Part shown: positions 5,406 to 29,459 of the stretch, piece by piece
How the letters are laid out: each line of letters starts with the position of its first letter
Numbering within the stretch: position 1 is the first letter of the stretch
From: Escherichia phage vB_EcoM_Alf5
Direction: 5' to 3' (one strand)
Sequence record: KX377933
Length of the DNA: 64,000 nt
Translations under genes and position numbers: made by a program
Notes under the pieces: model-generated
What the model was told of the DNA's origin: nothing
The model's database searches: none
Seen by the model: only the letters and a program-made list of their open reading frames with translations

Positions 5406-5753
5406 ATGACATTTAAAGAGTTCTGTCAAGCTACTTTCATAATTGTTTTCTTAGTTGGGGCAGGTGTCTGGGGAGGATATTCTTACAGAGACTATCAAGT
5501 TGCTGAAACTGAGCTAAACAATCAAAAGCTCATAAGTGTTGCTAAAGATGCTTATCAGGAAGGATTAGTCACACTGAGCACTAATTACAAAAATGATTTG
5601 AAAGATGTGCTTGCTAAGAATAAGCATACAAAAGAGGTGCTAACATATGAAAAAACTAAGCCAGAGTTTTATAATGTTTGTGTTACTGATAACTATGTCA
5701 GGGTGTTCAACGAACAAAGTGAACAGTACATTCAAAAACTCCCAAGTAAGTGA
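5406..5753 (+). CDS. i-spanin-like protein (N-terminal TM, periplasmic coiled region)
   Basis: 115-aa ORF with N-terminal hydrophobic helix FIIVFLVGAGVWGG; overlaps next ORF in another frame. Confidence 0.4.
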   Translation: MTFKEFCQATFIIVFLVGAGVWGGYSYRDYQVAETELNNQKLISVAKDAYQEGLVTLSTNYKNDLKDVLAKNKHTKEVLTYEKTKPEFYNVCVTDNYVRVFNEQSEQYIQKLPSK

Positions 5754-6925: not shown

Positions 6926-7711
6926 ATGGGTATTGTAAAAATCATCAAAGGTGATATCTTTGACGCATTTGATAAAGGTAAATTTGATATCATTGGTCAT
7001 GGTTGCAACTGTATGAATTTCATGGGTGCAGGTATTGCAGCAACTATTTCTAAGCGTTATCCAAAAGTATATGATACTGATACAGAAGTTTACCTGTTTG
7101 CAGGTGGCATTCGCCACAAACCCTGTGAAAATTTACTAGGTAATTTTTCTGTAACACGTTTAAAGCAAGGTCGTATAGCTAACCTTTATACGCAACTTCA
7201 TACTGGTAAAGATGCCCGATACAGTGCTTTAGAGTCATCTTTGAAACAGCTTAACAGATACTGTGAAGTTAACCAGTTGAAGAAAGTTGGTCTACCTATG
7301 ATTGGTGCAGGTATCGGTGGACTCGACCCTCAAGCTGTCACAGTTATCATCAATCAGGTGATGAAGAGTGTAGATGTTTATCTTTATGTCTACGAAGCGG
7401 GAATGTACAATGAGTTACATTCAGGTTGGAAGAACTACTGTGAACCAGAATACTTTGCAGGCGTAGCTGTGTTCACAGACAATGCAGTTACCCTCTTCAG
7501 ACGAAGAAAAGGTAAGACACATCAAAGTAACCCTCCGGTTGAAAAGATGTCTCTGAGTAACGCTCTAGTTACCCACCTGTCGAAGAACAATCACAGGATT
7601 GCAGTGACATTTGGCAGTGATGCGGATACTTATATCTATGCAAGAACTGATGAGGATATCGAGTTAATCTTCTCTTCACCAGAGCTTACCTTCTTAGACG
7701 CAAAGAACTAA
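6926..7711 (+). CDS. macro-domain protein (TARG1/Poa1p-like ADP-ribose hydrolase fold) with C-terminal extension
   Basis: GDIFDAF...IIGHGCNCMNFMGAGIAATI and GLPMIGAGIGGLD match macro-domain signature segments. Confidence 0.6.
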   Translation: MGIVKIIKGDIFDAFDKGKFDIIGHGCNCMNFMGAGIAATISKRYPKVYDTDTEVYLFAGGIRHKPCENLLGNFSVTRLKQGRIANLYTQLHTGKDARYSALESSLKQLNRYCEVNQLKKVGLPMIGAGIGGLDPQAVTVIINQVMKSVDVYLYVYEAGMYNELHSGWKNYCEPEYFAGVAVFTDNAVTLFRRRKGKTHQSNPPVEKMSLSNALVTHLSKNNHRIAVTFGSDADTYIYARTDEDIELIFSSPELTFLDAKN

Positions 7712-22175: not shown

Positions 22176-22547
22176 ATGAAAAACAGAACAAACAAAGGCC
22201 AGTTTAAAAAAGGCCAGTCTGGAAACCCATCTGGAAGACCAAAAGGCTCTCGTAACAAAAGCTCACTCGTAAAAGCTCAACTGACCATTGATAATTCTGC
22301 TGAGTTTGCTGCAAAATTGTTTGAGGCGATTGTTACAAGGGACGCTGCTAAGCTTGCAGAGTTCGGTTTGACGACTGACGATGTAAACCTGAAGTCGATG
22401 ATGGAAGCTGGTAAAACTATCATGACCCACTCAGCAGGTGAGATGAAAGCGATTGCAGCAGACACTAAGAAGACCCCTGATAATGGTGGTCAAACCCAGA
22501 CAGATAACAAACCAACGTTTTCTGCTGTAGCGACTCTCAAAAAATAA
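22176..22547 (+). CDS. hypothetical protein with N-terminal KKGQSGNPSGRPKG motif
   Basis: 123-aa ORF; Gly/Pro/basic N-terminal motif, Ala-rich helical middle. Confidence 0.45.
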   Translation: MKNRTNKGQFKKGQSGNPSGRPKGSRNKSSLVKAQLTIDNSAEFAAKLFEAIVTRDAAKLAEFGLTTDDVNLKSMMEAGKTIMTHSAGEMKAIAADTKKTPDNGGQTQTDNKPTFSAVATLKK

Positions 22548-22626: not shown

Positions 22627-24042
22627 ATGAGCGAGTTATTTAAACATGCACACCTTCATGCAGGTCGGACTGAAAATGGTGCTGTAAACCATACTTCATC
22701 AATGTCTGCTCTGGTAGACTTTTACAAAGCCGCTGGCTCAAGCCGTAGCAATGTAGAAATCTTACCAGACCTGTTCTACAAAGCTTTGCATGAGGATGTT
22801 GATGTTGCAGTTCGTATTTTACTGCATATGCGAGATGTACGAGAAGGTATGGGTGAGCGTAAAGCTTTCCGAACTGTTTTACTTCAAGCAATTGAAGATA
22901 AAGTTTTAGAGCCTACACAGGTTCTTCGCATTATGGATAAGATTGCAGAACTTGGTCGTTTTGATGACTTCAAAATCTTCGTAGGTACTCGTTTCGAGAC
23001 GGATGCCTTCAAACATTTAGAGGCAGCATTACTAGACCCTGCAACAGCAGGTTTGGCAGCTAAGTGGTTACCACGAGTCAAACCACGTCATAAGCAGTTT
23101 GTAAAACGTTTCTGCAAGTTTGCCAACTTGAGTGAGAAAGAGTACCGCACACTGTTATCTGCACTGTCTGATACGGTTGAGCAAAAAATCTCTGCTAATG
23201 AGTTTGGTAAGATTGACTACAGCAAGATTCCTTCACTCGCTGCTGCACGTTACCAAAAGCTCTTTAACCGCAAAGATGGAGAACGTTACAAAGCTTACAT
23301 CGAATCACTCTCAAAGGGTGAGTCTAAGATTAACGCTGGTGCTGTTTATCCATACGATGTGATTAAGTCTATCAAGCATGGTAATGCAGATGTTGCCAAT
23401 GAGCAGTGGAAAGCACTACCAAACTGGATGGCAGAAGGTGAGAACATCTTGTGTATGACTGATGTTTCAAGCTCAATGTCTTGGGTGAATCTTGGTTCAA
23501 TCACTGCCCTTGATATTGGTGTATCACTTGCCTTGTATGTAGCAGAACGCAATACAGGTTGCTTTAAGGATGAGTTGATGGTTTATTCAACAAACCCTCA
23601 CTTCATTGAACTGAGTGGTGATTTACGAAACCGTCATCGTCAGGTGATGCGACACGTTGAATATGGCTCAACTAACTTACAGGCAGCTTTTGACCGCATT
23701 CTTGAGGTAGGTAAAAGAAACAACTTGACTCAGAAAGATATGCCAAGTAAGCTTATCATCTTCTCTGATATGGAGTTCAATCAGGTTGATGGAGCTAATG
23801 GTCGTACAAACTTTGAAGCAATTCAGAGTAAGTACAAAAAAGCTGGATATGAGATGCCACAACTGGTATTCTGGTACTTAGCAAACCGTAATGGTACTTG
23901 CGAAGTGTCTGTTAAGGATAACGGTGTAGCAATGGTATCTGGTTTCTCTCCAGCCACTTTAAAAGCTTTGCTTGGTGGTGAGAAGTTTGACCCAATCAGT
24001 GTAATGCTCAAAGCAGTAATGATTGACCGTTACATCTGGTAA
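22627..24042 (+). CDS. Ro60/Rsr-like protein (TROVE-like N-terminal region plus vWA domain with MIDAS)
   Basis: 471 aa; LCMTDVSSSM (DxSxS), downstream GSTNL and IIFSDMEF fit a vWA MIDAS; ERKAFRTVL resembles Ro60 TROVE as recalled. Confidence 0.55.
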   Translation: MSELFKHAHLHAGRTENGAVNHTSSMSALVDFYKAAGSSRSNVEILPDLFYKALHEDVDVAVRILLHMRDVREGMGERKAFRTVLLQAIEDKVLEPTQVLRIMDKIAELGRFDDFKIFVGTRFETDAFKHLEAALLDPATAGLAAKWLPRVKPRHKQFVKRFCKFANLSEKEYRTLLSALSDTVEQKISANEFGKIDYSKIPSLAAARYQKLFNRKDGERYKAYIESLSKGESKINAGAVYPYDVIKSIKHGNADVANEQWKALPNWMAEGENILCMTDVSSSMSWVNLGSITALDIGVSLALYVAERNTGCFKDELMVYSTNPHFIELSGDLRNRHRQVMRHVEYGSTNLQAAFDRILEVGKRNNLTQKDMPSKLIIFSDMEFNQVDGANGRTNFEAIQSKYKKAGYEMPQLVFWYLANRNGTCEVSVKDNGVAMVSGFSPATLKALLGGEKFDPISVMLKAVMIDRYIW

Positions 24043-24056
24043 AAAGTTTTAAAAAG

Positions 24057-24095
24057 GGTATTGACAATGTGTTTGATACCCTTTAATATGTTCTA
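24057..24095 (+). promoter_or_regulatory. sigma70-like promoter upstream of tRNA island
   Basis: TTGACA, 17-bp spacer, TAATAT. Confidence 0.45.
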
Positions 24096-24207
24096 CATAG
24101 AAACGAAATGAGAGCTTTTCTAAGATACTGAAAAATATTTTAAAAAAGTTCTTGACAATCACTAAAAAATAATGTTAAAGTGGTTACATAGAGTTTGAAA
24201 AGTTTAT

Positions 24208-24284
24208 CTCTGTTTAGCTCAGCTTGGTAGAGCGTTCCGTTTGGGGCGGTAAGGCCGGAGGTTCAAGTCCTCCAACAGAGACCA
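24208..24284 (+). tRNA. tRNA, anticodon TGG (Pro)
   Basis: 7-bp acceptor ctctgtt/aacagag, D-stem gctc/gagc, T-arm ggagg-ttcaagt-cctcc, encoded CCA. Confidence 0.55.
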
Positions 24285-24291
24285 AATTAAT

Positions 24292-24369
24292 GTTCCAGTA
24301 GACAAAATGGTAAAGTCACCACTCTTTCAAAGTGGATATTTGAGGGTTCAAATCCCTTCTGGAACGCCA
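24292..24369 (+). tRNA. tRNA, anticodon TTC (Glu)
   Basis: acceptor gttccag/ctggaac, anticodon arm ccact-ctttcaa-agtgg, T-loop ttcaaat, CCA. Confidence 0.6.
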
Positions 24370-24375
24370 GTTTTG

Positions 24376-24452
24376 ACAGAAGACCAATTACAGCAAACTT
24401 AATCTACTCATCTGACACGAAATCGGACAAAGAAGATATTTGGTCTGGTCAT
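24376..24452 (+). ncRNA. repeat module A: conserved stem-forming motif pair
   Basis: agaccaa (24381-87) pairs with ttggtct (24440-46); shared flanks acagaagacc and ggtctggt. Confidence 0.35.
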
Positions 24453-24459
24453 TAAGAAT

Positions 24460-24536
24460 TGCGGGTATAGAGAAAGGGCGTCTCACATGTCTCATTAGCA
24501 TGGTATCGGCAGGTTCGACTCCTGCACCCGCCTCCA
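24460..24536 (+). tRNA. tRNA, anticodon CAT (Met)
   Basis: D-stem gaga/tctc, anticodon arm catgt-ctcatta-gcatg, T-arm gcagg-ttcgact-cctgc; 1:72 appears unpaired. Confidence 0.5.
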
Positions 24537-24541
24537 AATTT

Positions 24542-24610
24542 ACAGAAGACCGTTTACAGCAATATTTATTAAATTTTTAGCGGAAAAATTGAAAGATACG
24601 GTCTGGTAAT
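24542..24610 (+). ncRNA. repeat module B
   Basis: agaccgt (24547-53) pairs with acggtct (24598-604); same acagaagacc...ttacagcaa / ggtctggt flanks. Confidence 0.35.
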
Positions 24611-24619
24611 ACTAAACAT

Positions 24620-24696
24620 GGTTAGGAAGCACATAAGGTATGTGCGGTCGCCTGTTAAGCGAATGGCACAGGGTTCGAATCCCTGACTAACCGCCA
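24620..24696 (+). tRNA. tRNA, anticodon GTT (Asn)
   Basis: D-stem gcac/gtgc, anticodon loop ctgttaa, T-arm caggg-ttcgaat-ccctg, CCA. Confidence 0.55.
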
Positions 24697-24765
24697 AATT
24701 TAGGAGAGAAGCGATTGCTCACCGATTTGTAAGGTGCAAGTCCTTAGCCTGAATAGAAATTAAAT

Positions 24766-24853
24766 GTGTCGTTATCCCGTAGATGGTAGCGGTGGGGACT
24801 GTAAATCCCTTGTCATTGAGACTCGGTAGGTTCGACTCCTACACGGCACACCA
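24766..24853 (+). tRNA. tRNA, anticodon GTA (Tyr), long variable arm
   Basis: acceptor gtgtcgt/acggcac, anticodon loop ctgtaaa, 15-nt variable arm, T-arm gtagg-ttcgact-cctac. Confidence 0.6.
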
Positions 24854-24858
24854 ATAAA

Positions 24859-24936
24859 GGTTATGTAGTTTAATTTGGTTAAAATACTCCCCTGTCACGG
24901 GAGATGATGAGGGTTCAAATCCCTTCGTAGCCGCCA
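24859..24936 (+). tRNA. tRNA, anticodon GTC (Asp)
   Basis: anticodon arm ctccc-ctgtcac-gggag, T-loop ttcaaat, CCA. Confidence 0.6.
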
Positions 24937-24963
24937 ATTTTGAGAGGACTATTTAGCCCCTCC

Positions 24964-24995
24964 CTTAAAGAGTTCTTACGAGTATTCTTTAAAGG
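24964..24995 (+). promoter_or_regulatory. hairpin with conserved loop GTTCTTACGAGTAT
   Basis: cttaaagag-gttcttacgagtat-tctttaaag; a second copy with the same loop occurs at 28346-28377. Confidence 0.4.
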
Positions 24996-24996
24996 A

Positions 24997-25072
24997 GCAG
25001 AAGACCAAATTCAGCAAGAACGTATGAAATTTCAAGCCAATTTAATTTTGAAAATTTAAACTTGGTCTGGCT
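24997..25072 (+). ncRNA. repeat module C
   Basis: agaccaa (25002-08) pairs with ttggtct (25062-68); degenerate copy of modules A/B. Confidence 0.3.
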
Positions 25073-25081
25073 CAACAAATT

Positions 25082-25218
25082 TACAGAAGACCGTTTACAG
25101 CAAAACTTAAACAATCTATTTCTCCGGTAAAGAAAAGGCGAAGGTTCGATTCCTTCACTCGGCAGATGTCGAGTTGGTGTAATGGTAGCACTTAAGATGA
25201 TAAACAACGGTCTGGTAA
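25082..25218 (+). ncRNA. candidate Y RNA-like ncRNA with permuted tRNA-like domain
   Basis: 8-bp stem agaccgtt (25088-95) / aacggtct (25206-13) encloses T-arm gaagg-ttcgatt-ccttc, hairpin actcggc-agat-gtcgagt and D-arm gtgt-aatggta-gcac. Confidence 0.45.
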
Positions 25219-25358
25219 TTATCTTTGTAGATAAGTTATTAAGCTTACCTGTGAGTATGCGACCACAAAGGGTGAAAGGGTAAATTCTAGATTTAAACCC
25301 AAAAAGGCACATCGCTACAGACCTTAAGCAAGTCTGGGTAGCTTATCTACAAAGATAA
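25219..25358 (+). repeat. 17-bp perfect inverted repeat enclosing ~105 nt
   Basis: ttatctttgtagataag (25219-35) and cttatctacaaagataa (25342-58) are exact reverse complements. Confidence 0.6.
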
Positions 25359-25364
25359 TTTAAT

Positions 25365-25440
25365 GGAAGTGTAGCAGAATGGTGATGCGGCAGACTTTTA
25401 ATCTGACAGGCGATGGGTTCGAATCCCTCCACTTCTACCA
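25365..25440 (+). tRNA. tRNA, anticodon TTT (Lys)
   Basis: acceptor ggaagtg/cacttct, anticodon arm (g)caga-cttttaa-tctg, T-loop ttcgaat, CCA. Confidence 0.5.
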
Positions 25441-25444
25441 ATAT

Positions 25445-25521
25445 GGTTCAGTCGCAGATAAGGTAATGCAAGGGTCTCATAAGCCCTATGAATGTGGGTT
25501 CGATTCCCATCTGAACCTCCA
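25445..25521 (+). tRNA. tRNA, anticodon CAT (Met or Ile2)
   Basis: acceptor ggttcag/ctgaacc, anticodon arm agggt-ctcataa-gccct, T-loop ttcgatt, CCA. Confidence 0.5.
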
Positions 25522-25598
25522 AGCTGGTATAGTTAAGAAGGTTATAACACTCCCCTGATAAGGGAACATCGGTGGTTCGATTCCACCTACCAGTACCA
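25522..25598 (+). tRNA. tRNA, anticodon GAT (Ile)
   Basis: D-stem gtta/taac, anticodon loop ctgataa, T-arm ggtgg-ttcgatt-ccacc, CCA. Confidence 0.55.
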
Positions 25599-25606
25599 AT
25601 TTCAAT

Positions 25607-25645
25607 AAAGTTGTTGACATTGAGATGTGACTACTTTATAGTAAC
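25607..25645 (+). promoter_or_regulatory. sigma70-like promoter inside tRNA island
   Basis: aaagTTGTTGACA, 17-bp spacer, TATAGT. Confidence 0.45.
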
Positions 25646-25846
25646 CTTAGTTTTCGTTGCGTAGCGTCTATTTTGCAAATTTAAAATAAATGCAAACGAC
25701 AATGTTTTTCTGGCAGTAGCTTGATAGGCTAAACACCAGTGAGGTCTTCCAATCCCTCATCAAAGAATTTGGCGTACTAGCCCACGGTATGATTAATAAG
25801 GTGGGCATCTTTAAGGGCTTTCTAAGAGAGTCTTTAAAGATAATTA

Positions 25847-25928
25847 CGGGGCGTATCTCAGCGGTCTTCTAAACCGCCGTTAACCGAGTAAGTGGAGTAT
25901 GCGGGTTCGAGTCCTGCCGCCTCGACCA
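25847..25928 (+). tRNA. atypical tRNA-like element, anticodon-like loop TCT (Arg?)
   Basis: 7-bp acceptor cggggcg/cgcctcg and T-arm present, perfect hairpin gcggt-cttctaa-accgc, but no canonical D-arm; 23 nt before T-arm. Confidence 0.3.
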
Positions 25929-25942
25929 ATTTTGGAGAAATC

Positions 25943-26290
25943 ATGAAAACTTGTATTAGGTGCAAACTTAGCAAGGATGAAAATGATTTCTACATGAAAG
26001 ATGGTAGGAGGACTCATTCATACTGTAAAAAGTGTGTTAATGAGCAAACCATAGAAAGACAAAGAGCACTTAAACTCTCAGCTATTGAGTACAAAGGTGG
26101 GGTTTGTCATGATTGTGGTAAAAAGTATCATCCAGCAGTGTATGACTTCCATCATTTGAATCCTTCAGATAAAGATTTTAACATTGGTCATAGGAAAAGC
26201 CTTAAGTTCTCTCAAGAACTAAAAGATGAACTTGACAAATGTGTTTTGCTATGTTCAAATTGCCATAGGGTAAGACATGCAAAGTATTAG
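25943..26290 (+). CDS. HNH homing endonuclease
   Basis: CxxC...HHLNPSDKDFNIGH...CSNCH motifs; ATG at 25943 with GGAG RBS; track start 25892 lies inside the tRNA-like element. Confidence 0.65.
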   Translation: MKTCIRCKLSKDENDFYMKDGRRTHSYCKKCVNEQTIERQRALKLSAIEYKGGVCHDCGKKYHPAVYDFHHLNPSDKDFNIGHRKSLKFSQELKDELDKCVLLCSNCHRVRHAKY

Positions 26291-26427
26291 TTAGCAGATT
26301 ACTTAGACGACCTTAGCGGGTCTTCCTGTAGGGAGGTGGTCTGTATCTCATGTTTTCCAGAACATGTAAATAATCTGAGAAGGGGCTTTACAGTGTTGAG
26401 ATAATACGGTAAGCTTCGAATTATAGT

Positions 26428-26510
26428 ATGGGACGATGTTAAGACTCTAAGGCATGAGCAACGGCCTCCAAAACCGTTTCAAAGGGGTTCAACTCCTCCG
26501 TCCCATGCCA
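26428..26510 (+). tRNA. atypical tRNA, anticodon CCA (Trp?) with ~7 extra nt between acceptor and D-arm
   Basis: perfect acceptor atgggac/gtcccat, anticodon arm acggc-ctccaaa-accgt, T-loop ttcaact, CCA. Confidence 0.4.
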
Positions 26511-26523
26511 AAGTCTTATTAGG

Positions 26524-26611
26524 GGTAGGTAGCGGCTAATGGTAGCCAAACTGTCTTGAAAACAGTTGCCACTGTAGAGATACGGTGAGGGTTCGACTCC
26601 TTTACTTACCG
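26524..26611 (+). tRNA. tRNA, anticodon TGA (Ser), long variable arm
   Basis: anticodon arm actgt-cttgaaa-acagt, ~20-nt variable arm, T-arm gaggg-ttcgact-ccttt; no encoded CCA. Confidence 0.55.
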
Positions 26612-26868
26612 CCTAATAAGATTTAAAGCCAAGCTTCATTCGGATGTCGCTTTGGTATCCCGCGTGTATTGTCGTACACACTGATAAAACACCTAGTAGG
26701 TGTCACGGAGAAGAGATAATATCAAGCTCTCCAAAGGTTCTAGTCACCGGATTAAACAAGACTATGCAAAGACCTTTTTAGGTCTTTTTAGAGGGCTTCT
26801 AAGGTTATTACAGCTTGTTGTGGAACCTTGTTGCTTAGGTTCTTAGAAGTTCTCTAAAAAGATTTAAT

Positions 26869-26946
26869 GGGAGATTGACGGTAATTGGTAAACCTACCAT
26901 CCTTAGAAGTTGGTGTTTGAGGGTTCGAATCCCTTGTCTCCTACCA
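26869..26946 (+). tRNA. class-I tRNA, anticodon TAG (Leu by anticodon)
   Basis: acceptor gggagat/gtctcct, anticodon arm ccatc-cttagaa-gttgg, 5-nt variable loop, T-loop ttcgaat, A73, CCA. Confidence 0.45.
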
Positions 26947-26953
26947 AATTAAT

Positions 26954-27029
26954 GCAGGTGTAGCAAAATGGTTATGCGGCTGACTCTTAATCAGTAAGAC
27001 GACGGGTTCAATTCCCTCCACCTGTACCA
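26954..27029 (+). tRNA. tRNA, anticodon CTT (Lys)
   Basis: anticodon arm (g)ctga-ctcttaa-tcag(t), T-loop ttcaatt, CCA. Confidence 0.5.
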
Positions 27030-27034
27030 AAAAT

Positions 27035-27110
27035 GGGGTCATAGTTTATATGGTTAAAATTCGAGTTTTGCAAACTTGGGAACTGAGTTCAATTCTCAGT
27101 GACTCCACCA
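27035..27110 (+). tRNA. tRNA, anticodon TGC (Ala)
   Basis: acceptor ggggtca/tgactcc, anticodon arm cgagt-tttgcaa-acttg, T-arm ctgag-ttcaatt-ctcag, CCA. Confidence 0.6.
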
Positions 27111-27116
27111 ATTAGT

Positions 27117-27191
27117 GCATCCATAGTTTAAACGGGAAAATTACAGTCTTCCAAACTGAGGTTGAGGGTTCGATTCCCTCTGGATGCTCCA
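27117..27191 (+). tRNA. tRNA, anticodon TCC (Gly)
   Basis: perfect acceptor gcatcca/tggatgc, anticodon loop cttccaa, T-arm gaggg-ttcgatt-ccctc, CCA. Confidence 0.55.
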
Positions 27192-27197
27192 AATTAA

Positions 27198-27274
27198 TGC
27201 TCCTATCGTATAATCGGCTATTACGGTTGCCTTGTAAGCAACTTATCAGGGTTCGAATCCTTGTGGGAGCACCA
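27198..27274 (+). tRNA. tRNA, anticodon TGT (Thr)
   Basis: anticodon arm gttgc-cttgtaa-gcaac, T-loop ttcgaat, CCA. Confidence 0.6.
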
Positions 27275-27275
27275 A

Positions 27276-27368
27276 TTCAGAGGTCAAGTGAAAGACCGCT
27301 GGTGTCAACTGAAGACCGTAACAAATTCCACGGAGTTGAGTTAGCGGCACAACTTCAGACCTCTTTCA
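27276..27368 (+). ncRNA. structured non-tRNA spacer with paired repeat segments
   Basis: agaggtc/gacctct and ctgaag/cttcag complementarities; two GAAGACCG motifs. Confidence 0.3.
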
Positions 27369-27369
27369 C

Positions 27370-27444
27370 ACTCGCTTAGTTTATATGGTAAAACATCACC
27401 CTTACAAGATGAAGAAAAAGGTTCAAGTCCTTTAGTGAGTACCA
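27370..27444 (+). tRNA. tRNA, anticodon TAC (Val)
   Basis: D-stem gttt/aaac, anticodon arm tcacc-cttacaa-gatga (one mismatch), T-arm aaagg-ttcaagt-ccttt, CCA. Confidence 0.55.
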
Positions 27445-27445
27445 T

Positions 27446-27523
27446 GTTCCAGTATCCCAATTGGCAGAGGATGCAAGCTCAAACCTTGTATTAGTGACGG
27501 TTCGAATCCGTCTTGGAACACCA
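27446..27523 (+). tRNA. class-I tRNA, anticodon CAA (Leu by anticodon)
   Basis: acceptor gttccag/ttggaac, anticodon arm gcaag-ctcaaac-cttgt, short variable loop, T-arm gacgg-ttcgaat-ccgtc, A73, CCA. Confidence 0.5.
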
Positions 27524-27541
27524 ATTTAAAGAGGCTATTTA

Positions 27542-28099
27542 ATGAGATATTTGAAGTACGCTTCATGGATTTTCTTAGCTTTACTAGACCCAATTGCAGC
27601 AATCCTAGCAGTTATTTTAGCACCTTTCGTAGTTCCATTCTACAGTGAGAAGAAAGGACATCTACCTTTTGGATTCAGATGGATGGAGACATATGACAAC
27701 CCAATTGATGGTGATGAAGGTCACGTTAAAAGATGGGCTAAGATTAGAAAGATTGGTAAGCTGGGTGTCTACATGCAGAGAGTCGGATGGCTCTGGAGAA
27801 ACAAAGCTTATAACTTCTCTTACCATGTATTAGGAAGAGATGTAAAAGATGTTACTAAGTGGAAAGGTAATATCAACGTAAGTTCTGACCCCGAAGATAA
27901 TCAGACAGGTTATCTCCTAATGTGGAACAACAATGCTTGGGGATTATTCGCTTTTATTCCGTCAATTAAAGTCTTTGGTAAACAGTTTTACTGGAGAATT
28001 TATGTTGGATGGAAACTAAAAAGTGTTGTCCCAGAAGAAAGAGCATTCTCAAGGGAAAGAGTTATGTTGGCATTCTTTATTCATCCACTGAGAAAGTAA
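27542..28099 (+). CDS. hypothetical membrane protein inside tRNA island
   Basis: 185-aa ORF; N-terminal hydrophobic segment IFLALLDPIAAILAVILAPFVVPF; Trp-rich; AGAGG RBS. Confidence 0.5.
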   Translation: MRYLKYASWIFLALLDPIAAILAVILAPFVVPFYSEKKGHLPFGFRWMETYDNPIDGDEGHVKRWAKIRKIGKLGVYMQRVGWLWRNKAYNFSYHVLGRDVKDVTKWKGNINVSSDPEDNQTGYLLMWNNNAWGLFAFIPSIKVFGKQFYWRIYVGWKLKSVVPEERAFSRERVMLAFFIHPLRK

Positions 28100-28107
28100 A
28101 GATTTAA

Positions 28108-28183
28108 AGGGGATTAGTTTACAAGGTTAAAACCTCGGTCTTTGAAATCGAAGAAGTTGGTTCAATTCCAACATCCCCCGCCA
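28108..28183 (+). tRNA. tRNA, anticodon TTG (Gln)
   Basis: D-stem gttt/aaac, anticodon arm tcggt-ctttgaa-atcga, T-arm gttgg-ttcaatt-ccaac, CCA; 1:72 A-C mismatch. Confidence 0.55.
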
Positions 28184-28185
28184 AT

Positions 28186-28264
28186 GCTCCATTACTCCAA
28201 TTGGCAGAGAGGCCAGACTTAAAATCTGTGTTATGTATCGGTTCGAATCCGATATGGAGTACCA
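28186..28264 (+). tRNA. class-I tRNA, anticodon TAA (Leu by anticodon)
   Basis: acceptor gctccat/atggagt, anticodon arm (c)caga-cttaaaa-tctg, T-arm atcgg-ttcgaat-ccgat, A73, CCA. Confidence 0.45.
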
Positions 28265-28269
28265 ATTTT

Positions 28270-28345
28270 AGCGGTATAGCATAACTGGCAATGCAGCAGT
28301 CTCTGAAGCTGTCCTATTAAGGTTCAAATCCTTATGCCGCTGCCA
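28270..28345 (+). tRNA. tRNA, anticodon CTG (Gln)
   Basis: D-stem gcat/atgc, anticodon arm gcagt-ctctgaa-gctgt, T-arm taagg-ttcaaat-cctta, CCA. Confidence 0.55.
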
Positions 28346-28377
28346 CTTCTAAGGGTTCTTACGAGAATCCTTAAATG
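28346..28377 (+). promoter_or_regulatory. second copy of hairpin with loop GTTCTTACGAGAAT
   Basis: ctaagg-gttcttacgagaat-ccttaa directly after tRNA 3' end. Confidence 0.4.
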
Positions 28378-28452
28378 TGGCCTTATCATAAATGGTAATG
28401 ACCCATGCTGTGAACATGGTCTATACGGGTTCGACTCCCGTAGGTCACCCCA
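28377..28452 (+). tRNA. tRNA, anticodon GTG (His)
   Basis: anticodon arm ccatg-ctgtgaa-catgg, T-arm acggg-ttcgact-cccgt, C73, CCA. Confidence 0.6.
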
Positions 28453-28457
28453 ATTTA

Positions 28458-28534
28458 TAGTCCAAGTAGCTTATATGGTTAAAGCGCGTGTCTGAAAAAC
28501 ATGAGAAGAGGGTTCAAATCCCACTGGACTACCA
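28458..28534 (+). tRNA. tRNA, anticodon GAA (Phe)
   Basis: D-stem gctt/aagc, anticodon arm cgtgt-ctgaaaa-acatg, T-loop ttcaaat; acceptor register ambiguous by 2 nt. Confidence 0.5.
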
Positions 28535-28550
28535 ATTTCAAAGGTGCTTA

Positions 28551-29285
28551 ATGAAAGAGATGACAGAACAAGGTAAGGAGATTTTTAATCTCTTAAAAAC
28601 CGGTAAAGGGTTTTCTAACCCACTTATTACTGGTGCAGCAGTTCTCGGTGGAACCGTAGCTGCCTCTACATCACTTGTAAGCTCTATTAGCTCTGTAACA
28701 GACCCTACAATGAAGGAGAAGCTTGTTGCTGCTGGACTTACAACAGTCCTTCTAAACAGCTTTACAACAAGCCTGACAAGCACTACAGCAACTACTAAGA
28801 CCCTAACAGACTATGGTCAAAAGTCTATTGATGAGTTTTCATCACGTATGCAGGTAGCAAAGGGTTATTCCAATGTTATGGGTGCAGCAGGAGAACAAGT
28901 TGGTTGTACACCATTCAGTGGTATTATGGGTGTTGCTACAGAGTATGGTCAAAAAGCTATTGACATGATTAACAGCACACTAGACAGTGTTAACGGTGTG
29001 TTAAGTGACTTACAAGACGCTATTGATAAGGGTCTTGATACTGTTTCTGATTTAGCTAATCAGGCTGTTAGTAAGATTAATGAAGGTATCTCAAAGATTA
29101 CAGCTTATGCAGATGAAGTTGTGCAGATGATTGAAGAAGAAGCTGCCCTTATTACAGAGTACCTTAAAACTAATATCAATGGGTTCTTAGCAGGTATCTT
29201 ACCAGACTGGTTTGATGATGCTTGTAAAACTGGTGTGATTGATACTATTGCAACACCAGAAATGAAGAGCGCATTACAGAAATAA
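28551..29285 (+). CDS. hypothetical Ser/Thr-rich protein inside tRNA island
   Basis: ATG at 28551 after AAAGG RBS; track start 28488 lies inside the preceding tRNA. Confidence 0.5.
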   Translation: MKEMTEQGKEIFNLLKTGKGFSNPLITGAAVLGGTVAASTSLVSSISSVTDPTMKEKLVAAGLTTVLLNSFTTSLTSTTATTKTLTDYGQKSIDEFSSRMQVAKGYSNVMGAAGEQVGCTPFSGIMGVATEYGQKAIDMINSTLDSVNGVLSDLQDAIDKGLDTVSDLANQAVSKINEGISKITAYADEVVQMIEEEAALITEYLKTNINGFLAGILPDWFDDACKTGVIDTIATPEMKSALQK

Positions 29286-29286
29286 C

Positions 29287-29379
29287 GGAAGATTAACCCT
29301 AAAAGGTAAGGGAGCAGTTTGCTAAACTGCCAGTAGCTGAGAAATCGGTGTACCAGTTCAAGTCTGGTATCTTCCTCCA
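29287..29379 (+). tRNA. tRNA, anticodon GCT (Ser), long variable arm
   Basis: perfect acceptor ggaagat/atcttcc, anticodon arm gcagt-ttgctaa-actgc, ~21-nt variable arm, T-arm accag-ttcaagt-ctggt, CCA. Confidence 0.6.
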
Positions 29380-29383
29380 ATTT

Positions 29384-29459
29384 GAATCCGTGACAGAAAT
29401 GGATATGTGCCTGTCTGCAAAACAGGTTTATAAGGGTTCAAGTCCCTTCGGATTCTCCA
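29384..29459 (+). tRNA. tRNA, anticodon GCA (Cys)
   Basis: perfect acceptor gaatccg/cggattc, anticodon arm cctgt-ctgcaaa-acagg, T-arm aaggg-ttcaagt-ccctt, CCA. Confidence 0.6.

Follow-up and report, generated by a model that had tools for sequence, protein, structure and literature searches.

Bacteria that encode Ro60 carry a tRNA-like Y RNA and at least one shorter Y RNA, which lie near the Ro60 gene and are made from a common precursor (PMC4201824). The second Y RNAs are YrlB in S. Typhimurium and M. smegmatis and Yrn2 in D. radiodurans, and the 2014 survey of Y RNAs by Chen et al. was limited to TROVE-annotated genomes (PMC4201824). Phages also encode such systems: Ro60 of Thermus phage phiLo binds two adjacent Y-like RNAs, and a hijack of host PNPase against defence has been proposed for it (PMC12135203). 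A 2024 PhageMaP preprint found that the Ro60-like protein gp130 of Felixounavirus counters the Ppl defence, and that gp130 alone, supplied from a plasmid or from T7, gave back plaquing on a Ppl host; the authors guessed that some of the "tRNA genes" downstream of gp130 might be its Y RNAs (PMC11482910).

We analysed a stretch of 64,000 nucleotides (the window) from Escherichia phage vB_EcoM_Alf5 (KX377933), a Felix O1-like phage (Felixounavirus). The product of ORF 22627-24042 belongs to PHROG 850 ("RNA-binding protein") and is 98% identical to bas63_0130 (Bas63 gp130). A Pfam search of this ORF returned DUF2828 and DUF7788 only, TROVE not being found, and phmmer against PDB sequences gave nothing relevant. 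We obtained an AF2 model of the protein (pLDDT 87, pTM 0.87), and its top ten structure matches in the PDB were all Ro60, full-length, with TM of 0.5-0.66 and E of 1e-8 to 1e-6; they include 2i91, 1yvp, 2nvo, 9kop and 9l5y. The predicted structure shows the hallmark of Ro60, a HEAT-repeat ring with a C-terminal vWA domain that holds a MIDAS, and the MIDAS residues DxSxS...T...D (D279, S281, S283, T349, D381) are invariant. We conclude that the protein, as modelled, has a Ro60-like fold that is revealed only by structure comparison.

A preliminary description of the DNA 3' of this gene had reported three copies of a motif pair, each able to form a 7-bp stem around 44-53 nt and each matching the flanks of a permuted tRNA-like element while lacking its core. 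The recurrence was confirmed. The motif CAGAAGACC-N3-TNCAGCAA occurs four times in the window, always on the plus strand, where 0.05 occurrences are expected. Likewise, the pattern CAGAAGACCNNNTWCAGCAA, allowing up to two mismatches, has exactly four sites (24377, 24543, 24998 and 25084, plus strand), a number reached in none of 100 shuffles (mean expectation 0.05). The 3' partners have the sequence (T/C)GGTCTGG and occupy 24440-24447, 24598-24605 and 25062-25069. We refer to the three short copies as e1, e2 and e3 and to the copy with the tRNA-like core as e4 (Table 1). All four copies are found 330-1,180 nt 3' of the ORF, with e1-e3 at 332-1,031 nt and on the same strand. The 7-bp stems of e1, e2 and e3 enclose 52, 44 and 53 nt, as had been proposed, and the closing sequences of e4 do match those of the short copies, with the core present in e4 only. 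The quoted motif strings had to be amended: the spacer is 2 nt, not 3, before TTACAGCAA (it is 3 nt before TACAGCAA), and e3 carries TTCAGCAA and GGTCTGGC instead. The stem itself was correctly seen, but an outer 4-bp helix beyond a 3x1 internal loop had been missed.

Table 1. Features at and around the four elements (positions in the window; segments of e1-e3 are separated by hyphens, 5' to 3').
Feature	Position	Strand	Remarks
Ro60-like protein gene, presumed partner	22627-24042	+	471 aa; Pfam DUF2828 + DUF7788; Bas63 gp130 ortholog
Promoter-like site, 5' of tRNA/element cluster	24061-24089	+	TTGACA-17-TAATAT; consensus scan only
Promoter-like site, 27 nt before first tRNA	24152-24181	+	TTGACA-18-TAAAGT, TG extended; consensus scan only
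tRNA-Glu(UUC)	24292-24369	+	ARAGORN, Rfam; 3' end 4 nt before e1
Short element e1	24374-24451	+	TGAC-AGA-AGACCAA-T-TACAGCAA-43 nt-TTGGTCT-G-GTCA; box 24389-24396
tRNA-Met(CAU)	24460-24536	+	ARAGORN, Rfam; 3' end 3 nt before e2
Short element e2	24540-24609	+	TTAC-AGA-AGACCGT-T-TACAGCAA-35 nt-ACGGTCT-G-GTAA; box 24555-24562
tRNA-Asn(GUU)	24620-24696	+	ARAGORN, Rfam; 10 nt 3' of e2
Short element e3	24995-25073	+	GAGC-AGA-AGACCAA-A-TTCAGCAA-44 nt-TTGGTCT-G-GCTC; box 25010-25017
Long element e4	25081-25218	+	Same closing module around permuted tRNA-like, YrlA-type core; box 25096-25103

The fold common to all four copies consists of the 4-bp outer helix, the 3x1 internal loop (AGA/G) and the 7-bp inner helix, and in every element a single-stranded box, U(A/U)CAGCAA, comes right after the inner helix strand. 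A kink-turn reading of the AGA/G loop was rejected on inspection; the short strand has no tandem G-A pairs. The outer helix covaries among e1-e3 (TGAC/GTCA, TTAC/GTAA and GAGC/GCTC). Their interiors are 35-44 nt long and A/U-rich and have at most one small hairpin, which in e3 is UUUCAA/UUGAAA. Folded singly, the copies have modest MFE z-scores (-1.8 to -1.9); structural support for the elements comes from covariation and not from stability, and interior structure was not significant by MFE z-score (mean z -0.24, p = 0.06). Measured from helix to helix, e1-e3 are 70-79 nt long, compared with about 80-130 nt for known Y RNAs; if neighbouring tRNA processing sites set their ends, the predicted size is about 83-92 nt at most. 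ARAGORN and Rfam found no tRNA features (T arm, D arm or closed acceptor-like stem) in e1-e3. An Rfam 15 scan, run at gathering thresholds over the whole window and at E<=10 over 24040-25940, returned no family for the elements, Y_RNA included; the only matches at the elements were chance-level ones to Dicty_Class_I_RNA (20.1 and 17.5 bits, where the gathering score is 41.5). A covariance model, R1, scores e1, e2 and e3 at 44.3, 50.8 and 38.0 bits, all three being seed members.

The preliminary description had raised the question of whether the motifs might be absent from related genomes or fail to co-vary there; they are present and they co-vary. Ounavirinae-like phages supplied 19 distinct closing modules, in which pairing holds for 98.9% of cells and both sides change in 9 of 10 pairs, giving a covariation score of 0.78 compared with 0.24 for shuffled modules (0 of 500 reach 0.78) and at most 0.12 for slid partners. 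Both helices covary, including the outer helix, for which pairing was not required, although among several candidate 3' partners that with the most outer-helix pairs was retained. Four G-U cells in these modules become A-C mismatches if read on the opposite strand. In alignments of orthologous elements the ends are invariant and the interiors diverge with 1-2-nt indels. Because of these indels, and because conservation is found only at the RNA ends, we rejected coding potential (a 107-aa minus-strand ORF at 24989-25312 and small plus-strand ORFs). In one relative (L092), whose Ro-like protein is 63% identical, e1-e3 are kept and syntenic with invariant ends and compensatory changes; at 53-56% identity the e1 and e2 positions hold elements with different helices. 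The four elements also follow gp130 in phage Bas63, where they are unannotated; there e3, e4 and a structured region just 3' of e4 overlap small ORFs, annotated on the minus strand, which are probably spurious. The same array is carried by thirty-odd IMG/VR contigs of Felixounavirus size, mostly with all four copies. With these results, we conclude that e1-e3 are real, conserved, structured elements.

We then considered a diverse set of 82 DUF2828 loci (722 kb). A loose descriptor (the box plus any helix) gave many chance matches in coding DNA, and controlled enrichment tests were therefore adopted. We counted 90 copies of the box TACAGCAA on the gene strand, compared with 18 on the opposite strand. 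In 59 of the 90 cases it lies directly after a helix strand with a partner 16-180 nt downstream, compared with 29% of random positions (p = 2.6e-12), and 24 of these 59 show an AG...CU-G signature that only 5 of 715 controls have. Inner-helix partners in this set were picked by their ability to pair, so any percentage of paired positions is partly circular; less circular evidence is given by the enrichment tests and by the outer helix, the latter not obliged to pair but used as a tie-breaker among candidate partners. Interior lengths are bimodal, the elements are concentrated within roughly 1 kb of the gene, and same-strand linkage to the DUF2828 gene is seen in about 55 of the 82 loci. RNAalifold, applied to 44 short elements, independently predicted the same 7-bp helix with covariation at all seven pairs and no structure besides this closing helix. 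A search of 85 loci with R1 (E<=1) gave 91 matches, 89 on the gene strand and 2 on the opposite strand, about half of them non-seed. R1 also gave matches beside the gene in Listeria P100 and in Staphylococcus, Enterococcus and Bacillus phages, all outside the seed. The module of box and helix is found again next to DUF2828 (Ro60-like) genes in phages of Proteobacteria, Firmicutes and Actinobacteria alike. In mycobacteriophage Gabriela, a short-long-short trio followed by a terminator stands directly after a gene annotated "Ro-like RNA binding protein". In unrelated phages the family is most often represented by short forms, whose interiors fall in a tight class of 23-48 nt, and at some loci with short forms the long form was not detected. 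Our literature search returned nothing relevant on DUF2828, the box sequence or "Ro-like" proteins together with phage Y RNAs. The short elements belong to an RNA family that is apparently undescribed and that adjoins the Ro60-like gene in hundreds of phages.

The core of e4 runs in the order V-like hairpin, T arm, closed 7-bp acceptor stem and D arm, and together with the closing stem this is the layout of YrlA, the type of tRNA-like Y RNA present in bacteria and in TROVE-encoding phages. ARAGORN calls the core a tRNA once it is un-permuted and given an artificial anticodon arm, and Rfam gives a weak, partial tRNA match at 25107-25157. R1 detects e4 only in part (15.9 bits), because the 102-nt core must count as an insertion. 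The closing stem and box of e4 are common to e1-e3, that of e2 being an identical closing module, whereas the T, D and acceptor arms are absent from e1-e3. The box start, UUAC, fits the conserved "YUAY" that opens the V loop of YrlA; the sequence motif of the Ro-binding region, however, differs in e1-e3.

The short elements most resemble YrlB and Yrn2 in placement and design. Like these, e1-e3 share a strand with a Ro60-type gene no more than about 1-2 kb away and stand beside a tRNA-like Y RNA, with 5' and 3' ends that pair and no full tRNA-like module. YrlB and Yrn2 can be processed together with the long form from one precursor, and by analogy the same may hold for e1-e3. The differences are that the partner here is of the DUF2828 type and not Pfam TROVE, that the signature is the bulged helix plus the UNCAGCAA box and not GNCGAAN0-1G, and that three short copies are interleaved with genuine tRNA genes. 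Indeed, a GNCGAAN0-1G regular expression matched nothing in e1-e3, its sole match in 24370-25220 being at 25137, the start of the e4 T-stem; at the equivalent place e1-e3 have a related purine string, CAGAAG. YrlB has no detectable homologs beyond Salmonella, whereas the short form described here is conserved across phyla. Metazoan Y RNAs (RF00019) share paired ends, a bulged helix below a large internal loop, which in them is the Ro60 binding site, and several paralogs per genome. In contrast to these, the elements show no sequence or covariance-model similarity, the GGUCCGA/bulged-C helix of metazoan Y RNAs is not conserved here, and e1-e3 would be made from a tRNA operon and not by Pol III. 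As in phiLo, with Yrl1 and Yrl2, and phiRo60, a phage Ro60-like ring protein stands next to Y-like RNAs (PMC12135203). A CGAA motif served to define the phiLo RNAs, which are found upstream of a Ro60 recognised by UniProt, and no UNCAGCAA box is reported for them. Phage T4 similarly encodes among its tRNA genes two small stable RNAs of unknown function, species 1 and 2 (rnaC and rnaD), that are released by tRNA-processing enzymes. No Ro-like gene is known in T4.

The preliminary description had offered three readings, namely Y-like RNAs, processing signals for tRNA precursors and protein-binding sites. The first and the last are best supported, by the Ro60-like ORF upstream, the covarying module and the same-strand linkage in very distant phages. 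We judge that e1-e3 are probably genes for short Y-like noncoding RNAs that partner the Ro60-like, DUF2828-type protein encoded upstream. The family adjoins the Ro60-like gene so widely that e1-e3 are most likely short partners, of the "Y RNA" type, of an anti-defence protein. They are best read as RNAs of the YrlB/Yrn2 type, with only the protein-binding module, their expression and binding being inferred. Against this reading, gp130 alone sufficed for plaquing, so that the RNAs are not required for the anti-Ppl activity (PMC11482910). The missing GNCGAAN0-1G motif, the lack of Rfam matches for the elements and of TROVE or PDB sequence matches for the protein, the modest single-copy z-scores and the interiors without significant structure also speak against it.

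According to this model, each short RNA would be essentially a bare protein-binding module. The inner helix begins with A-G-R in its 5' strand and ends with Y-C-U in its 3' strand, followed by G, and the small interior hairpin that is often present would correspond to the V arm of the long form. Transcripts that start from the promoters near 24061 and 24152 may carry the elements together with their flanking tRNAs. The usual processing of tRNA ends, by RNase P at the next tRNA and 3' trimming of the previous one, may then set free RNAs of about 75-95 nt. The 5' end of e1 would be set by 3' processing of tRNA-Glu, because only 4 nt separate them, and an RNase P cut at the 5' end of tRNA-Met would leave e1 with an 8-nt tail. 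The Ro60-like ring would then bind the RNAs through the bulged helix and the box. The long form may tether the protein to tRNA- or RNA-handling enzymes such as PNPase. Because they do not have the tRNA-like effector module of e4, the short forms would serve as gates or competitors, occupying or regulating the protein in the manner suggested for YrlB, Yrn2 and other second Y RNAs.

Alternatively, the copies could be cis-acting sites in a polycistronic tRNA precursor and not free RNAs. With the spacers looped out by the closing helices, the Ro60-like protein or a host RNase would be recruited and would chaperone, protect or trim the neighbouring pre-tRNAs. Such a role would fit the way e1 and e2 fill nearly the whole of their tRNA spacers (slack of 4 + 8 nt and 3 + 10 nt). 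The scans placed no terminator or promoter between the elements and the tRNAs (no plus-strand terminator-like site in 24208-25598), and DUF2828 genes often adjoin tRNA clusters. The Rsr/Y RNA complex of Deinococcus, moreover, works in rRNA maturation. However, in 28 of the 55 diverse element-bearing loci no tRNA gene is present within 4 kb on either side, and of 86 elements just 15 have a tRNA within 150 nt, the other 71 being farther away; the processing-signal reading is disfavoured because about half of the loci have no tRNA genes. The Gabriela trio has its own terminator and no tRNA nearby, and in the window the module occupies only 4 of about 25 tRNA spacers. We therefore consider cis-acting sites unlikely.

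The short copies could instead be decaying, functionless remnants of the tRNA-like Y RNA from which the core was deleted. The identity of the e2 and e4 closing modules would agree with this, as would the fast-evolving interiors and the resemblance of the e2 hairpin (UUUUU-AGCGG-AAAAA) to the V hairpin of e4 (UUUCU-CCGGUAA-AGAAA). Decay is very improbable, however, given the conservation in L092 and the positions still occupied, by different helices, at 53-56% identity, and given that the short form is commonest in unrelated phages and is also present at loci where the long form was undetected.

We regard as highly improbable a role at the level of DNA, as miniature inverted-repeat mobile elements, targets of recombination or homing endonucleases, or protein-binding operators. 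The ends are imperfect inverted repeats (TTACAGAAGACC ... GGTCTGGTAA) and genes for HNH endonucleases lie among the tRNA genes of the cluster, but the orientation relative to the gene is extremely biased (89:2 and 12:0; box 90:18), helix sequences differ wholly between copies and phages with pairing kept, the kept G-U pairs are mismatches in DNA or on the opposite strand, the conserved box has no inverted partner, and positions are syntenic, not scattered. Equally remote is the idea that these stem-loops, which in some phages lie just 5' of the gene, are terminators, attenuators or cis-regulatory leaders of the Ro-like gene: the stems do not run into a U-tract (the next sequences are GGTCAUUAAG, GGUAAUACUA and GGCUCAACAA), the terminator scan finds nothing at the elements, which in the window lie 3' of the gene, past two promoter-like sites and inside the tRNA operon, and there are multiple tandem copies and a long tRNA-like form. 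We also rejected a CRISPR-like array, since the copies are unevenly spaced (166, 455 and 86 nt) and what recurs is a split stem and not a direct repeat.

Under the preferred reading, that e1-e3 encode short Y-like RNAs, candidate Y RNAs of gp130 are placed in unannotated gaps between the tRNAs, three of them short and one tRNA-like. The bulged helix plus the UNCAGCAA box is a searchable signature beside DUF2828 genes in hundreds of phages from at least three bacterial phyla, and a new family model could serve genome annotation. None of the DUF2828-linked RNAs was covered by the TROVE-limited survey of 2014 (PMC4201824). Whether phage Ro-like proteins use RNA partners is now directly testable in a genetically tractable E. 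coli phage. More tentatively, and with considerable doubt, we suggest that DUF2828 proteins together with "UNCAGCAA-box" RNAs may make up a separate and widely distributed branch of Ro60/Y RNA systems, an RNA-regulated anti-defence RNP of phages. If so, the branch would span Felix O1-like, Listeria P100-like, Campylobacter, KVP40-like Vibrio, Staphylococcus, Bacillus and Mycobacterium phages. It would have a non-canonical recognition code, the bulged helix AGR...YCU-G plus single-stranded UACAGCAA, and its principal ligands would be bare short RNAs and not the tRNA-like form. The short RNAs would then switch the protein between an RNA-loaded state and a free state that neutralises defences such as Ppl.

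In 64 kb, where 0.05 copies would be expected, the motif CAGAAGACC-N3-T(A/T)CAGCAA occurs four times, each on the + strand and all between 24377 and 25103. The copies belong to three short elements (e1, e2 and e3) and one long element (e4), and folding gave a common structure for 4/4 of them. An outer helix of 4 bp is followed by an internal loop (AGA in the 5' strand, G in the 3' strand) and an inner helix of 7-8 bp (AGACCNN/NNGGUCU), and the box stays single-stranded directly 3' of the 5' strand of the inner helix. The outer helix varies by copy yet pairs each time (TGAC/GTCA, TTAC/GTAA, GAGC/GCTC). The preliminary description of these copies was right in general; it erred in the spacer length and in the variant strings of e3, and it overlooked the outer helix. 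Within this closing module, e1-e3 have an A/U-rich interior of 35-44 nt, and e4 has a V-like hairpin, which is similar to the interior hairpin of e2, a T arm, a tetraloop-closed acceptor-like stem of 7 bp and a D arm. ARAGORN called the e4 core a tRNA once it was un-permuted and an artificial anticodon arm was added. No Rfam family matches the elements, and e1-e3 lack the canonical GNCGAAN0-1G motif.

Positions of the elements and of other features in the window and in comparison loci
Feature	Position	Strand	Observation
DUF5681 ORF	22176-22547	+	Always 5' of the Ro-like gene in Ounavirinae-like genomes
Ro-like ORF	22627-24042		471 aa; directly upstream of the tRNA/element cluster
e1	24374-24451	+	Short element
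e2	24540-24609	+	Short element
tRNA spacer, Asn-Tyr	24697-24765	+	About 60-70 nt; box, tRNA features and Rfam match absent
tRNA spacer, Asp-e3	24937-24994	+	About 60-70 nt; box, tRNA features and Rfam match absent
e3	24995-25073	+	Short element
e4	25081-25218	+	Long element
Structured region	25217-25362	+	146 nt, directly 3' of e4; Rfam match and box absent
Stretch headed by the region's best promoter-like site	25614-25925	+	TTGACA-17-TATAGT, 11/12
tRNA-Arg(UCU)-like gene	25847-25925	+	Rfam 31.7 bits; missed by ARAGORN; tRNA-Arg(TCT) annotated here in relatives
HNH homing-endonuclease ORF	25892-26290	+	Inside tRNA cluster; PHROG 2255, E 2e-41
Short element, L092	5405-5467		Interior hairpin
Short element, L010	6443-6502		Interior hairpin
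Short element, L001	5746-5819		Interior hairpin
Short element, L004 (KP13-16)	5615-5675		Interior hairpin
tRNA-Asp(GUC)-like sequence, L004 (KP13-16)	about 6945-7069		Unannotated
Box-bearing element, L009 (Sinorhizobium phage phiM19)	2984-3084		14-bp closing helix; directly 3' of tRNA-Lys
'tRNA-Undet' and weak matches, L104 (Synechococcus phage B23)	4726-4957		3' of DUF2828 gene

The product of the Ro-like ORF matched DUF2828 and DUF7788 in Pfam, where TROVE was not matched, and 'RNA-binding protein' in PHROGs; a sequence search of the PDB gave no match. An AlphaFold2 model built with 38 homologs as input (pLDDT 87, pTM 0.87) had Ro60 structures as all ten of its best PDB matches (E 1e-8 to 1e-6, full length), namely Xenopus Ro60, Deinococcus Rsr and Thermus phage phiLo Ro60, and the remaining matches were isolated vWA domains only. 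The MIDAS residues are unchanged throughout the protein family. The product is 98% identical to bas63_0130 (gp130) of phage Bas63, a Ro60-like protein that counters the Ppl defence system according to the PhageMaP preprint, which speculates that some downstream 'tRNA genes' could be its Y RNAs (PMC11482910).

A 1.9 kb region shares 94-99% identity with >200 Felix O1-like phages (Felixounavirus) whose hosts are Salmonella and Escherichia. Mooglevirus, Suspvirus and two metagenomic relatives keep e1-e4 in matching intergenic positions, in the shared order Glu-e1-Met-e2-Asn ... Asp-e3-e4-Lys; e4 is absent from one relative with 63% protein identity. In IMG/VR, the exact Felix-type motif forms the same array in thirty-odd contigs of 81-94 kb, mostly with four copies, and it also occurs as scattered singletons. 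In orthologous alignments the ends and the box do not vary and the interiors diverge fast, with 1-2-nt indels that exclude a coding role. The outer helix has compensatory changes (TTAC/GTAA to TTGC/GCAA; GAGC/GCTC to GGGC/GTCC). Contigs with 53-56% protein identity have elements of the same architecture in several of the same tRNA spacers, with very different helices (GAAC|AUA|AGUAUC...GAUACU|G|GUUC; AAGC|AUA|GGACUC...GAGUCC|A|GCUU). Across 19 distinct closing modules, 98.9% of cells are paired and 9/10 pairs change on both sides, the outer helix being counted in; pairing of the outer helix was not demanded, serving only as a tie-breaker between several candidate 3' partners. The covariation score was 0.78, compared with 0.24 for shuffles (0/500 reached it) and <=0.12 for slid partners. 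Both the presence of the motif and its covariation in related genomes, which the preliminary description had asked about, were thus found. Because four cells among the modules are G-U, a + strand RNA is favoured.

The cluster holds other features as well. The structured region next to e4 has a multi-branched fold with a closing stem of 24 bp (MFE -48.3 kcal/mol, z = -6.2, 0/200 shuffles), is conserved in position in five relatives and has compensatory changes in its closing stem (GTAGATAAG/CTTATCTAC vs GCAGTGAC/GTTACTGC). In Bas63, the small minus-strand ORFs bas63_0137/0138 are annotated across the e3/e4/structured-RNA region. The roughly 200 nt that follow the best promoter-like site have only weak sub-threshold tmRNA (29.2 bits) and permuted-tmRNA (15.4 bits) matches (gathering score 47). 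Endonuclease genes in the tRNA cluster are variably present or absent in related phages, a possible driver of rearrangement in the array of tRNAs and elements.

The family extends well beyond these relatives. Directly 3' of its DUF2828 gene, Klebsiella phage KP13-16 (52% protein identity) carries five elements. Two are short and three contain tRNA-like cores; the helix differs each time and the box is identical. We assembled a wider set of 82 loci, including 75 IMG/VR loci (39-48% identity) and six phage records, and found TACAGCAA 90 times on the gene strand vs 18 on the opposite strand. Among the 90 boxes, 59 lie directly 3' of a helix 5' strand with its partner 16-180 nt downstream, vs 29% of random positions (Fisher p = 2.6e-12); some descriptor matches are expected by chance, and pairing percentages are partly circular because inner-helix partners in this diverse set were selected for pairing ability. 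Less circular support comes from the strand bias of the box, the enrichment over random positions, the flanking signature (helix starts AG, ends CU, then G; 24/59 vs 5/715 controls), the outer helix, the synteny-defined orthologs and the covariance-model matches in phages outside the seed set. Interior lengths fall in two modes, 23-48 nt and about 55-180 nt, and the elements gather within about 1 kb of the DUF2828 gene on either side. Directly 3' of a gene annotated 'Ro-like RNA binding protein', mycobacteriophage Gabriela has three elements in the order short-long-short (UGGNNNN-UA(A)CAGCAA...NNNNCCA-G), and a terminator comes after them.

Clean alignment at both ends was obtained for 44 short elements. 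RNAalifold returned exactly the 7-bp helix, with covariation in 7/7 pairs; nearly every element has G-C at pair 2, and pair 3 divides evenly between A-U and G-C (22:22). A covariance model built from this alignment (R1) scored e2, e1 and e3 at 50.8, 44.3 and 38.0 bits, values that are high by construction for seed members, and nothing else in the window save partial e4; on Bas63 it found the same four sites. At E<=1, with approximate E-values from a rough calibration, R1 had 91 matches in 85 loci, of which 89 lie on the gene strand; about half of the 91 are outside the seed. Matches adjoin the gene in non-seed phages, namely Listeria P100 (three matches), one Staphylococcus phage (three matches), one Enterococcus phage and one Bacillus phage, with weak matches in a Synechococcus phage, and all non-seed phage matches are on the gene strand.

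Several members have individual features. Many short-element interiors, in the loci tabulated and others, contain a U-rich/A-rich hairpin of 4-5 bp with a 7-nt loop, and the loops GCGGAUA, ACGCAUA, AUGCAUA and GCGCAUA recur in distant phages; interior stability of short elements overall was not significant (mean z -0.24). The 110-nt 'tRNA-Undet' of Synechococcus phage B23, which adjoins weak R1 matches, is probably a long tRNA-like family member miscalled as a tRNA. The tRNA-Asp-like sequence of KP13-16 has an insertion of ~35 nt at the D arm/anticodon arm junction, consisting of the hairpin AACTTCT-TAG-AGAAGTT and then TTACAGCA, which is the box of the Y-like elements, and could be a hybrid or recombination product.

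The suggestion that the motifs are processing signals for tRNA precursors is unlikely as a general role, since 28/55 element-bearing loci have no tRNA in the locus; only 15/86 elements lie <=150 nt from a tRNA. Decayed copies do not account for ends conserved down to about 55% protein identity, nor for the short class being the commonest form in unrelated phages. DNA-level repeats or mobile elements leave the strand bias, G-U covariation and unpaired conserved box unexplained. Terminators were rejected, as a U-tract is absent and a terminator scan had no match at the elements.

The nearest known RNAs are the 'second' bacterial Y RNAs (YrlB, Yrn2), followed by YrlA (for e4) and the phiLo Yrl RNAs. 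With these the elements share gene linkage on the same strand and, as in known bacterial and phage Y RNAs, their ends pair into a bulged stem and a tRNA-like form occurs alongside. Unlike known Y RNA systems, the putative partner protein here is a DUF2828-type Ro60 relative, the short elements have the UNCAGCAA box in place of the canonical motif, and several short copies are interspersed with genuine tRNA genes. Conservation of the short form also extends across phyla, whereas YrlB is without detectable homologs beyond Salmonella. The survey of Chen et al. was limited to TROVE-annotated genomes (PMC4201824), so DUF2828 phages fell outside it. Among the papers covered by our literature search, none describes these RNAs.

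ARAGORN called 24 tRNAs in the window, from 24208 to 29459. Promoter-like sites with a perfect TTGACA lie at 24061 and 24152 and the window scan found no + strand terminator-like site ahead of 25598; thus, the elements are probably co-transcribed with nine tRNAs. The spacers are nearly filled by e1 (4 + 8 nt slack) and e2 (3 + 10 nt slack). If RNase P cuts at the tRNA downstream and the tRNA upstream is matured at its 3' end, the products would be RNAs of roughly 80-90 nt whose short tails are single-stranded. In M. smegmatis, YrlA and YrlB are both cut from a single precursor (PMC4201824).

The putative binding site of the Ro60-like protein, by analogy with Ro60/Y RNA systems, is the bulged closing helix with the adjoining single-stranded box. 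Metazoan Ro60 reportedly (Green et al. in 1998) also depends for binding on a helix distorted by two bulges, one of 1 nt and one of 3 nt. The short forms look like a long form that lacks the T, acceptor and D arms, so that the binding module is kept and the tRNA-like effector module is missing. We therefore propose that they could occupy, gate or titrate the Ro60-like protein, with e4 tying it to enzymes that act on tRNA or RNA, for example PNPase. There is precedent for this in Deinococcus, Salmonella and Thermus phage phiLo (PMC4201824, PMC12135203). Since gp130 by itself is enough to rescue T7 on a Ppl host (PMC11482910), that activity does not require the RNAs; they may regulate the anti-Ppl activity of gp130 or have another function.
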